Assembly: GCA_046543235.1 (NCBI GenBank)
Contig: JBKGZT010000042.1
Coordinates: forward strand, 1 to 11,816
DNA from: Candidatus Acetothermia bacterium
Lineage (GTDB): Bacteria > Bipolaricaulota > Bipolaricaulia > M55B111
Direction of reading: 5' to 3'
Length of the DNA: 11,816 nt
Of the stretch, positions 9,001 through 11,816 are shown piece by piece. Made by a program: the position numbers. The first letter of the stretch is position 1. Each line of letters begins with the position of its first letter.

Positions 9001-11816
9001 TTTATCGTATCGTTAAAACTCAGTTTTTCATCCGTAGCTAAACCCTCTAAATGTAAAGACGATCATAAAGACGATCATCAAGATTATAATTTTTAACCGT
9101 ATTTCACTCAAGTCAACTATATTTTCGGGTCCTCCGGTCCTACAGGAAAACCGGCAGAGACTTTGCCCCACCTCCACCTGCCGGGAAAACCCACAGCACT
9201 TACCGGTTACTCCTCGCTGGAAAGCCAGCGAATCACTCCAGGGCCAGGTATGTGATCGAGCCCGGCCTCGCACCGATGGCTTTTTTCTTGAAAAAGCCAA
9301 ATCAAAAGGTCAAACTCAATGGCCTCCCTAAAACTCATTTTTGGAGGATCGTTTGGTTTAGGGAAGGAATTAGGTTATGATTGGTATCCACGTTCAGGAG
9401 GTGAAAAGGGTGAAAAGCGTTAGACAGATCAAGGAGGTCCTTGGACTCGACACCATTCACCAGGCAAGAAATCGGATCAAGGCGGTCGAGGAGGTAATTC
9501 AGCCGTACATGAAACGGGGGGAGAACAACGAGATACTTGTCGGTCAGGAAGGTGTAACGATTCTCTCTCGTCTACAAGATTTGTACGAAAGCGGATTACT
9601 CCTATCCGAAGCCGCAGAGGTAATCAGATCAGATGCGAGTCCTGATGAAATACAAGGGTATGATACGGATTCTTATAGTACCGAACAAGACCAGATAAAA
9701 CAGGATCTCGACTTCGTGGAGTACCTCAGAGAAGAAATTCAATTTCAGCGAGAGTTAATTATCGAACTGGCCGACCAGACGCCGACGGGAGAAACCAAGA
9801 AGAAGGCCGGAAGCGAGAAAGAGATGTGGTGGACGGATTGGTTATGAAGGACGAAACCGAACAACGGTGATATAGATGAAGTTTACGGTTCCCACCAGGA
9901 GCAACACCAAGCTTAAGAAAGCGATCAAGTCCATCCAGGATAACGGGCGGTTAAACGGCATCTGGACGGTTGCCAACGTAAACGCCGTCGATCGAATGGG
10001 GATCAACGACCACGGTCCGGTACATTCCAAGATCGTTGCCAATTCGGCCTTAAGGATGTTTCGCCTCATCACCGGTAGCGGCGCGACGCCTAGTATAGTG
10101 AAGGCACATGGCATGACGGAACACGACGCCGAGGTAGTTATCGTACTGGCCTCCGTATTACACGATCTAGGCCACGCAGTTCATCGAGTGCATCACGAGG
10201 AGTTCGGAATTGGCATAGCCGAATCCTTGATCCCGGGAATATTGGAAGATATATATGAAGGGTACGAACTGGGTATCATAGAAGGGGAAATACTTCATGC
10301 ATGCTACGCTCACGACACCGAAATGGAGACCCTGACCCTCGAAGCGGGGACGGTCAAGGTTGCAGACGCCCTAGACATGGAACAGGGACGAGCTAGAATT
10401 CCGTTCAGCGAGGGGGATCTGACGATTCACTCGGTTTCTGCGACCGCAATAGAAGAAGTTACGATTAAAAAAGGCAGTAAGAAGCCGGTCAACATAATCA
10501 TCGAGATGTCTAACTCGGCCGGGATCTTTCAGCTAGACAACTTGTTTAAACCAAAACTCGAGCATTCGGGTATAAGGGAGTACATAGAGGTAAACGTGGA
10601 AGTAGGGGAAAAGGAGTCGGAGAAAAAAATAATTGAGGATTATCAGTTTTGACCTGAACTACTCTTGGTATATCCCTAAAATTGGGGGCTTCACCATATT
10701 TTTAACAAAAGGTATCTTATGTTAAAAATCCGACGTACGTCCTTTTTCCGGCAAACGCGTGTAGTTGTTCGGATCATATAAGGCTTTAAAATAAAATAAG
10801 CTTATTTGGTCTTCGCCCCTAACTTGGGTTCTTCTCCATAAAAGGGGAGAAGAAATAAAAAGTTTCTCAGGTGTTCATTTCTCCCCTGGGGGGAGAAAGA
10901 AAGAATGAGGGGGAACGGGGCGAAAAAAGGCAAAATAACTCCAAATTAGGTAAAAATCATGAGTTTAGAGCTGACGCAGGAAGATTTCATGACTGAGCGA
11001 CAAATTAAGCGGCTGAAGGAGACCCTTCGGGGGGCAGCAAGGGAGGGCAGGGAAAAAGGCAAATATATCCCTGTGAGAGACTGGTGTATTTTGCATATCG
11101 CGCTAGACGCAGGATTGCGGGTTTCGGAGATCTGTGATCTGAAAATCGGCGACTTACTGATAAATCAGGGCAACTCTTCAATTATCGTCCGCAGCGGCAA
11201 AGGAGACAAGAAGCGGGGGGTCTCAATCGGCAATGAACTTAAGAATCACCTCAAAGAGTACATCCAGTGGAAGGAAGTCCACAACGAGCCAACCGGTGAC
11301 GATGACTTCCTGTTCCTATCACCAAGCGGGGAATCGGATCGTTTAAGTCGACAGGCCGTTTATCACGTCTTTAAGCGGTGGGCCAAACGAGCGGGCCTGC
11401 CGGAACGGTTCTCCATCCATTCCTGCAGGCATACCTATGCCTCGATGCTTTACAAATCAAGCGACTACAACCTCAGGTTGGTCCAATCCCAGCTCGGCCA
11501 CTCCTCAATTCAGACTACCCAGGTCTACGCGGACGTCTTAAACGAGGACGCAGAAAGAGCCGTCAACGATCTACCTCAATAGAATCTTTTTTTCCTCTCA
11601 TTTAGGGACCACAGAAGCAAAAAGGGATTAGTAAGGTTTTTTATGGATCCCTTTGGTTCCGTCTAGGTCCCTATCAATCTCCCGGTACAACCCTGTGCAG
11701 GGGGAATTGTTCCTCAAATAAATATGAGGCTTCAACGATCCATAATACGGTCGGCTTGGCTGCATAGTGTAGCGCTTTGTGTGTAAAAAACAGCTTTGGA
11801 AACCGTTCGACAAAAC

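Follow-up and report, generated by a model that had tools for sequence, protein, structure and literature searches.

A catalytic-domain-only tyrosine recombinase and its 28-bp dif-like site as a proposed FtsK-independent Xer module in Bipolaricaulota

A short tyrosine recombinase of Bipolaricaulota and a 28-bp site upstream of its gene probably constitute a single-recombinase, FtsK-independent Xer/dif module for dimer resolution that lacks the core-binding domain and is present in four families of the phylum. The intact enzyme motifs, the anatomy of the site, copy number, linkage, position and distribution can be seen directly in the genomes, and binding, cleavage and resolution would follow from known tyrosine-recombinase chemistry. 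On that chemistry, one monomer would bind each near-identical arm of the site through the catalytic domain alone, two sites on a dimer would pair in a tetramer, and Tyr190 would exchange strands where the asymmetric 6-bp spacer meets the arms. The asymmetry of the spacer would fix direction, so that directly repeated sites give two monomers, and FtsK would not be required, as with archaeal XerA.

The window (the whole stretch of DNA analysed, 11,816 nucleotides) belongs to a genome of 1.32 Mb that is 87% complete and is assigned to Bipolaricaulota by its named homologues. Comparisons were made across 184 genomes of Bipolaricaulota from 11 families (f1-f11), 147 of them in f1, f2, f10 and f11 and 37 in f3-f9. 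The features of the locus are as follows.

9410..9847, plus strand: HTH gene, encoding a MerR-type winged helix, linker, coiled coil and Trp-rich C-terminal tip (longest ORF from 9377)
9876..10652, plus strand: HD-superfamily phosphohydrolase, 258 aa (PF01966)
10700..10727, no strand assigned: dif-like site, 28 bp, 11-6-11 (inverted-repeat search, 0 matches in 200 shuffles)
10700-10710: left arm of the site, TTTTAACAAAA
10711-10716: spacer of the site, GGTATC
10717-10727: right arm of the site, TTATGTTAAAA
10959..11582, plus strand: tyrosine recombinase, catalytic domain only, 207 aa, proposed single Xer (PF00589)

An earlier note on this DNA had described an HTH gene, an HD gene and a recombinase within 9377-11582 as a conserved triad. 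All three ORFs are present there, HTH at 9377-9847, HD at 9876-10652 and recombinase at 10959-11582, and the likely start of the HTH gene is a GTG at 9410, preceded by AGGAGG, which yields a protein of 145 aa. The note overlooked the dif-like site, which occupies non-coding DNA at 10700-10727, after the HD gene and before the recombinase. Contigs aligned on the locus diverge at 10701-10726 in two runs, as expected because they share a 26-mer there, and give no informative joint. Searches with Rfam and PADLOC returned no match. Elsewhere in the window, a full CDC48/p97-type AAA ATPase (CDC48_N, CDC48_2 and two AAA domains), an archaeal-type protein in a bacterium, is encoded on the minus strand at 6694-8979, divergently from the module. 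At 11762-11816 there is a contig-end repeat that recurs at many contig ends of the same genome; its depth is high, its flanks are many and varied, and it is possibly the end of a small mobile element.

The recombinase and its dif-like site

The PF00589 domain spans residues 10-194 of the recombinase and the open frame has only 210 codons, which leaves no room for a core-binding domain; PF02899 was found neither in this protein nor in the closed genomes G005 and G006. Across 50 loci the protein measures 202-209 aa, most commonly 205. The assertion that all active-site residues are present holds throughout, as R54, K81, H154, R157, H181 and Y190 are invariant in 50/50 sequences, and the C-terminal LPQ is equally invariant at the 50 loci. 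Comparison with 11 relatives gave dN values of 0.07-0.12 against dS values of 1.6-2.8 or saturated, which points to strong purifying selection. In closed G006 the recombinase is the sole PF00589 match and the only tyrosine recombinase. A quick tree of 84 rows, for which the careful search was unfinished, separates every host family from the rest by a branch, that of f1 being weak, and recombinase distances track those of the HD protein (Spearman 0.70, 46 loci). The gene therefore appears to be inherited vertically as a core gene, although it has been replaced in some f2 genera. A single-sequence fold of the recombinase reached a pLDDT of 39, and a predicted complex with the HTH protein scored 0.00, a value that is evidence in neither direction.

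A second, partial XerC-like gene had been reported on contig C69; the gene is real and cut by the contig end, but it encodes an integrase with a core-binding domain. It lies beside tRNA-Val and tRNA-Cys (G000, C69:1-800) and is probably a mobile integrase.

Simple recombinases usually carry both domains, according to PMC8138268, and truncated archaeal integrases are described in PMC8371274 as recombining only poorly. Literature searches covering main texts, with few subscription papers among them, yielded no report of an Xer protein without a core-binding domain and none combining Bipolaricaulota with a tyrosine recombinase. Nor did searches that took in few subscription papers find a prior description of an FtsK-less, catalytic-only Xer/dif system such as that proposed here.

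In the genome under study the dif-like site ends 231 bp upstream of the recombinase and is single-copy, the next best match having 4 mismatches. Its right arm is identical at 10/11 bases to the XerD arm of E. coli, the dif sequence being that given in PMC2731167. In 48/50 loci the recombinase starts 58-251 bp downstream of the site; the other two lack the site because they are cut by contig ends. A core of ACAAAA-G-N4-C-TTTTGT is common to f1, f2, f10 and f11, with outer bases that differ between f1/f2 and f10/f11. The spacer is fixed at 6 bp and is palindromic in 0/48.

Pattern searches of the 184 genomes found the site in 17/19 genomes of f1 (including the genome studied here), 37/50 of f2, 4/4 of f10 and 70/74 of f11, i.e. 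in 128/147 genomes of these families, where it is single-copy in 111 of the 128; the patterns were derived from the same loci, and kin genomes are not independent. Reversed-pattern controls for the two site patterns matched in 3 and 0 genomes. Only one of the 37 genomes in other families had a match, a weak one with 1 mismatch (G071, f5).

Distribution, replacement and chromosomal position

Orthologues of the recombinase (E at most 1e-37, counted by hand) occur in 14/19 genomes of f1, 37/50 of f2, 4/4 of f10 and 69/74 of f11, a total of 124/147. It had been stated that three families lack the triad; this is too few, since the orthologue is missing from 7/11 families and found in 0/37 genomes of f3-f9. 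Some genomes, among them G099, which is 90% complete, gave no match whatever to the recombinase query, and this counts against the Xer reading.

Within f2, the same 37 of 50 genomes hold both site and recombinase, and the same 13 lack both. In 8 of these 13 the HTH and HD genes are followed by another recombinase, of two other short tyrosine types or of the serine type. A 183-aa recombinase with a different palindrome fills the slot in G044, G045, G046 and G048, a third short type does so in G020, G035 and G047, and in G019 (96% complete) the occupant is a serine recombinase with its own palindrome (L125, 2427-3170). As the site is absent where the recombinase was swapped and the HTH gene kept, it follows the recombinase and not the HTH gene. 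Separately, at L179 and at two f8 loci (L180, L181), the 183-aa recombinase has an upstream repeat, GTAACA..-N6-TTCTGTTAC, that resembles the core of the site.

These replacements bear on the possibility that the palindrome is mainly an operator, bound for regulation by the short recombinase or the HTH protein, with dimers resolved by other means or with no need for resolution. The constant place of the site upstream of the recombinase start would suit such a role. Of the f2 loci L014-L029, 13/16 have an extra half-site that covers the likely promoter about 50 bp ahead of the recombinase, which suggests autorepression and fits an operator too; moreover, one phage carries a copy of the site just upstream of an HTH paralogue. 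Yet an operator would explain neither the invariance of every catalytic residue nor a 6-bp spacer that is never palindromic in a site kept at one copy per genome. It is further at odds with the loss of the site upon recombinase replacement while the HTH gene stays, and with relatives outside the phylum that have sites without an HTH gene, some of them downstream of the recombinase gene. We therefore consider a mainly regulatory palindrome improbable.

In f3-f9, a 301-aa full-length Xer-like gene with a core-binding domain is found in 28/37 genomes, as against 0/147 in the other four families (E<1e-100); the short recombinase and this full-length gene are mutually exclusive. In part of f6, and clearly only there, the stop codon of the full-length gene is directly followed by an 11-6-11 site of its own. 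The phylum would display at least four interchangeable recombinases in the proposed Xer role.

In the two closed genomes, both of one genus, the site is 170 degrees (G006) and 195 degrees (G005) from dnaA. Skew was determined from 40 samples of 20 kb each and is weak; the relation of dif to skew in PMC3025954 served as benchmark. At fourfold sites the skew of G006 switches at about 925 kb (885-965), the site being at 888 kb, and that of G005 at about 889 kb (679-1039), the site being at 895 kb. With plain GC skew the switch of G006 falls at about 975 kb (905-1045), a range that leaves out the site. In G128, a gapped single scaffold that is 69% complete, the angle between the site and a partial dnaA is about 136 degrees, and the skew is unusable.

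The earlier note had proposed a housekeeping function in dimer resolution rather than a mobile element, and this proposal is backed by the target site, by the apparent terminus position in the two closed genomes, by the family-wise tree and by the exclusion of full-length Xer. Its description of the phylum as devoid of FtsK also stands: PF01580 exceeded the cut-off in 3/184 genomes, all as partial matches, and the FtsK gamma domain did so in 0/75, both controls being over the cut-off in 8/14 known genomes. The match in G040, one of the three, looks like a secretion-type ATPase. ParB was over the cut-off in 4/75 genomes. Among five genomes, FtsZ was found in 5/5, ScpA in 2/5 and DivIVA over the cut-off in 0/5. 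One HerA-like ATPase was present in 5/5 and might serve as a substitute translocase, a role proposed for archaea in PMC2958812. Two genes of the FtsZ/tubulin family per genome, as in many archaea, were seen in G005, G006 and G117.

Phage copies and relatives outside the phylum

More than one match to the site was recorded in 17 genomes, and 12 extra copies were examined. Three of these are duplicates or splits of the locus, four lie in tailed phages, one in an integrase-bearing element (G147) and four elsewhere. In the tailed phage of G058 the copy sits between the small and large terminase genes; on phage contigs of G027 and G065 it is upstream of the terminase genes, and on one of G136 it is near a head gene. 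In IMG/VR the f10/f11 pattern has three matches, all of them phage-like and two beside a terminase gene, and 2/10 matches to the f1/f2 pattern, from one phage, are upstream of a terminase gene. The other 8 of these 10 viral matches, to the AT-type f1/f2 pattern, are on AT-rich contigs and were discounted as probably due to chance.

Phage spacers differ from host spacers in all four host pairs compared, which suits self-resolution (circularisation or monomerisation) better than integration as the use of the phage copies. Catalytic-only Xer proteins or dif mimics beside terminases did not turn up in the literature searched, though the datasets of PMC8138268 could list the family.

A tailed phage on a 30-kb contig (L135, G065:C6) has two copies of the site with different spacers, at 3620 and 16420. 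It also encodes an HTH paralogue with an amphipathic-looking tip at 15855-16406, one of the copies lying just upstream of this gene. The ORFs listed for this contig include no integrase, and the phage is a candidate plasmid-like prophage. Viral contigs searched with the HTH profile gave no match.

Outside the phylum, the recombinase has relatives in about 80 clusters (50% identity) at E<1e-30, most of them about 200 aa long. Among the best 80 of 266 genome loci, which include Planctomycetota, Marinimicrobia and others, several genomes have 2-3 copies, and the closest relatives are often multi-copy and situated amid defence or cargo genes, so that the recombinase family appears to be mobile. 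Where enough flank is available, 26/62 outside loci have an upstream 11-6-11 repeat (at least 9/11 pairs) as compared with 3.4 expected, and a shared motif, derived from the same loci, is present at 37/63 versus 1.0 in shuffles. Two outside loci have a downstream site close to that of f10/f11. Neither an HTH nor an HD gene was found at the 62 loci. A plasmid search gave only 30-37% matches. One outside relative with a site (L317, OY762711.1:2943922-2949530) is located at 48% of a 6.15-Mb chromosome record. We infer that these are mobile resolvases and that one of them may have been recruited here as the chromosomal Xer.

Given such kin, the recombinase might be left over from a mobile element, or be an invertase, and serve no chromosomal function today. 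FimB/FimE-type invertases are about 200 aa long and consist of the catalytic domain only, a size that fits; the nearest outside relatives look mobile, and the slot has been exchanged several times. This reading is nevertheless very hard to reconcile with strong purifying selection, a family-wise tree and a near-invariant site, with the exclusion of full-length Xer, and with a genome that contains no second inverted site, and we regard it as highly improbable.

Linked genes and comparison with known systems

The reported linkage of HTH gene and recombinase is borne out by 27/30 loci, the remaining three being cut by contig ends, and by 19/20 in a second set. The HTH gene was matched in 152/184 genomes, among relatives in 17/18 of f1, 47/50 of f2, 4/4 of f10 and 73/74 of f11, and weakly elsewhere; f6 and f8 mostly lack it (2/18 and 0/4). 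In most f11 genomes the HTH search found another, weaker match besides the first, and in G052 (f4) it found eight.

The model of the HTH protein has a pLDDT of 79, with about 66 in the C-terminal tip. By VIA-align it matches the RacA DNA-binding domain with Z 9.8 (rmsd 1.9 over 67 residues), MerR regulators tie with RacA (Z 9.7-9.1), and pSK1 Par follows with Z 7.3; the best Foldseek match has E 1.3e-3. W141 and W142 are invariant in 16 rows, and the tip, with a hydrophobic moment of 0.07-0.51, is Trp-rich, modestly amphipathic and, in f1, acidic. RocS and RicO link DNA to the membrane, as stated in 10.1101/2024.07.25.605149 and 10.64898/2026.03.06.710092. A possible RacA-like anchoring role is suggested by the predicted fold and domain order. 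We read the HTH gene as a separate, linked chromosome-maintenance factor; its most likely product is a DNA-membrane tether of the RocS/RicO type, in genomes that for the most part lack ParB, a proposal for which we see an even chance.

The HD gene had been counted as part of the triad, but it is phylum-wide, being found in 166/184 genomes, including those of families without the module. In most other families it is unlinked, and it was not found in G147-G150 or in genus g48; a search of PDB sequences with the HD protein gave no match. On balance we take it for a passenger in the module and a phylum-wide housekeeping gene. The notion of the triad as one system is thus upheld in part: HTH gene, site and recombinase adjoin in g48, yet this genus has no HD gene, and HTH and HD genes remain in place where recombinase and site have been replaced.

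Might the HTH protein and the recombinase still be one integrated machine, in which the former ties the terminus region to membrane or septum and, by recruiting or activating the latter, replaces FtsK and the lost core-binding domain? An HTH gene and a recombinase within 2 kb of each other across four families, also where the HD gene is missing, would be expected, as would the scarcity of FtsK gamma (0/75) and ParB (4/75). The invariant LPQ of the recombinase suggests a contact surface, and one phage holds both an HTH paralogue and copies of the site. However, the HTH gene is retained next to three unrelated recombinases, sites occur without it in relatives outside the phylum, and f6 and f8 are mostly without it, all of which makes an integrated machine unlikely.

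A wider scenario, which we offer as speculation and think doubtful, is that Bipolaricaulota segregate their chromosomes without FtsK or ParB. A resolvase of the catalytic domain only, domesticated from a wide mobile family, each member with its own 11-6-11 site, would have displaced the full-length Xer, and a linked RocS-like protein would tether the terminus and license the resolvase. Tailed phages without a recombinase of their own would carry the site by their terminase genes and rely on the host enzyme to circularise or monomerise their DNA, the service that Cre/loxP renders to P1.

If the proposed Xer/dif module is real, a 205-residue Xer and a 28-bp site would indicate that a catalytic domain alone can perform dimer resolution, and they would make it possible to examine how directionality is preserved when FtsK is missing. 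The copies in tailed phages suggest that these viruses exploit the host Xer in a way not yet described, and so small a recombinase, whose site comes in a family of natural variants, may be useful as a compact tool.

Xer proteins in the literature surveyed combine a core-binding domain with a catalytic one, and the bacterial XerCD, XerS and XerH need FtsK. The E. coli XerCD/dif system likewise has a 28-bp site, whose XerD arm is the one shared at 10/11 bases (PMC2731167), but it employs two enzymes, whereas the module described here has one, without core-binding domain or FtsK, that scores below the XerC and XerD cut-offs. FimB and FimE need two inverted sites that flank an invertible segment, in contrast to one site per genome and no such segment here, and the recombinase scores 48-60 bits with their profiles, for which the cut-offs are 221-222.

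With XerL/dif and LME-1 of Legionellales, and with IMEX and plasmid cer/psi sites, the parallels are that a single recombinase suffices and that dif mimics are carried by mobile elements (PMC9765430); in contrast to these, the mimics found here are neighbours of terminase or portal genes in tailed phages. The HTH protein resembles RocS, RicO, RacA and pSK1 Par in its MerR-type winged helix and coiled coil, and perhaps in a hydrophobic C-terminal tip (10.1101/2024.07.25.605149 and 10.64898/2026.03.06.710092). It differs from them in having no DUF536 match, in the lack of DivIVA over the cut-off in five genomes, in a tip that is Trp-rich and, in f1, acidic, and in a gene located at the terminus module.

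XerS/difSL and XerH/difH share with the module the single recombinase, the site by its gene and inner AAAA/TTTT runs in the arms (PMC5357621), but XerS and XerH are about 355 aa long and FtsK-dependent, as opposed to 205-207 aa and the catalytic domain only in FtsK-less genomes here. Archaeal XerA/dif, according to PMC2958812, has a single recombinase, a near-symmetric 11-6-11 site that is not exactly at 180 degrees, and no FtsK, in all of which the proposed module resembles it. The best PDB matches to the recombinase are XerA, which keeps its N-terminal domain (chains of 292-317 aa); the recombinase scores 131 bits against an XerA cut-off of 220. By this comparison the module has the arrangement of XerS/difSL and would act in the manner of archaeal XerA, and it is the core-binding domain that sets it outside those protein families.
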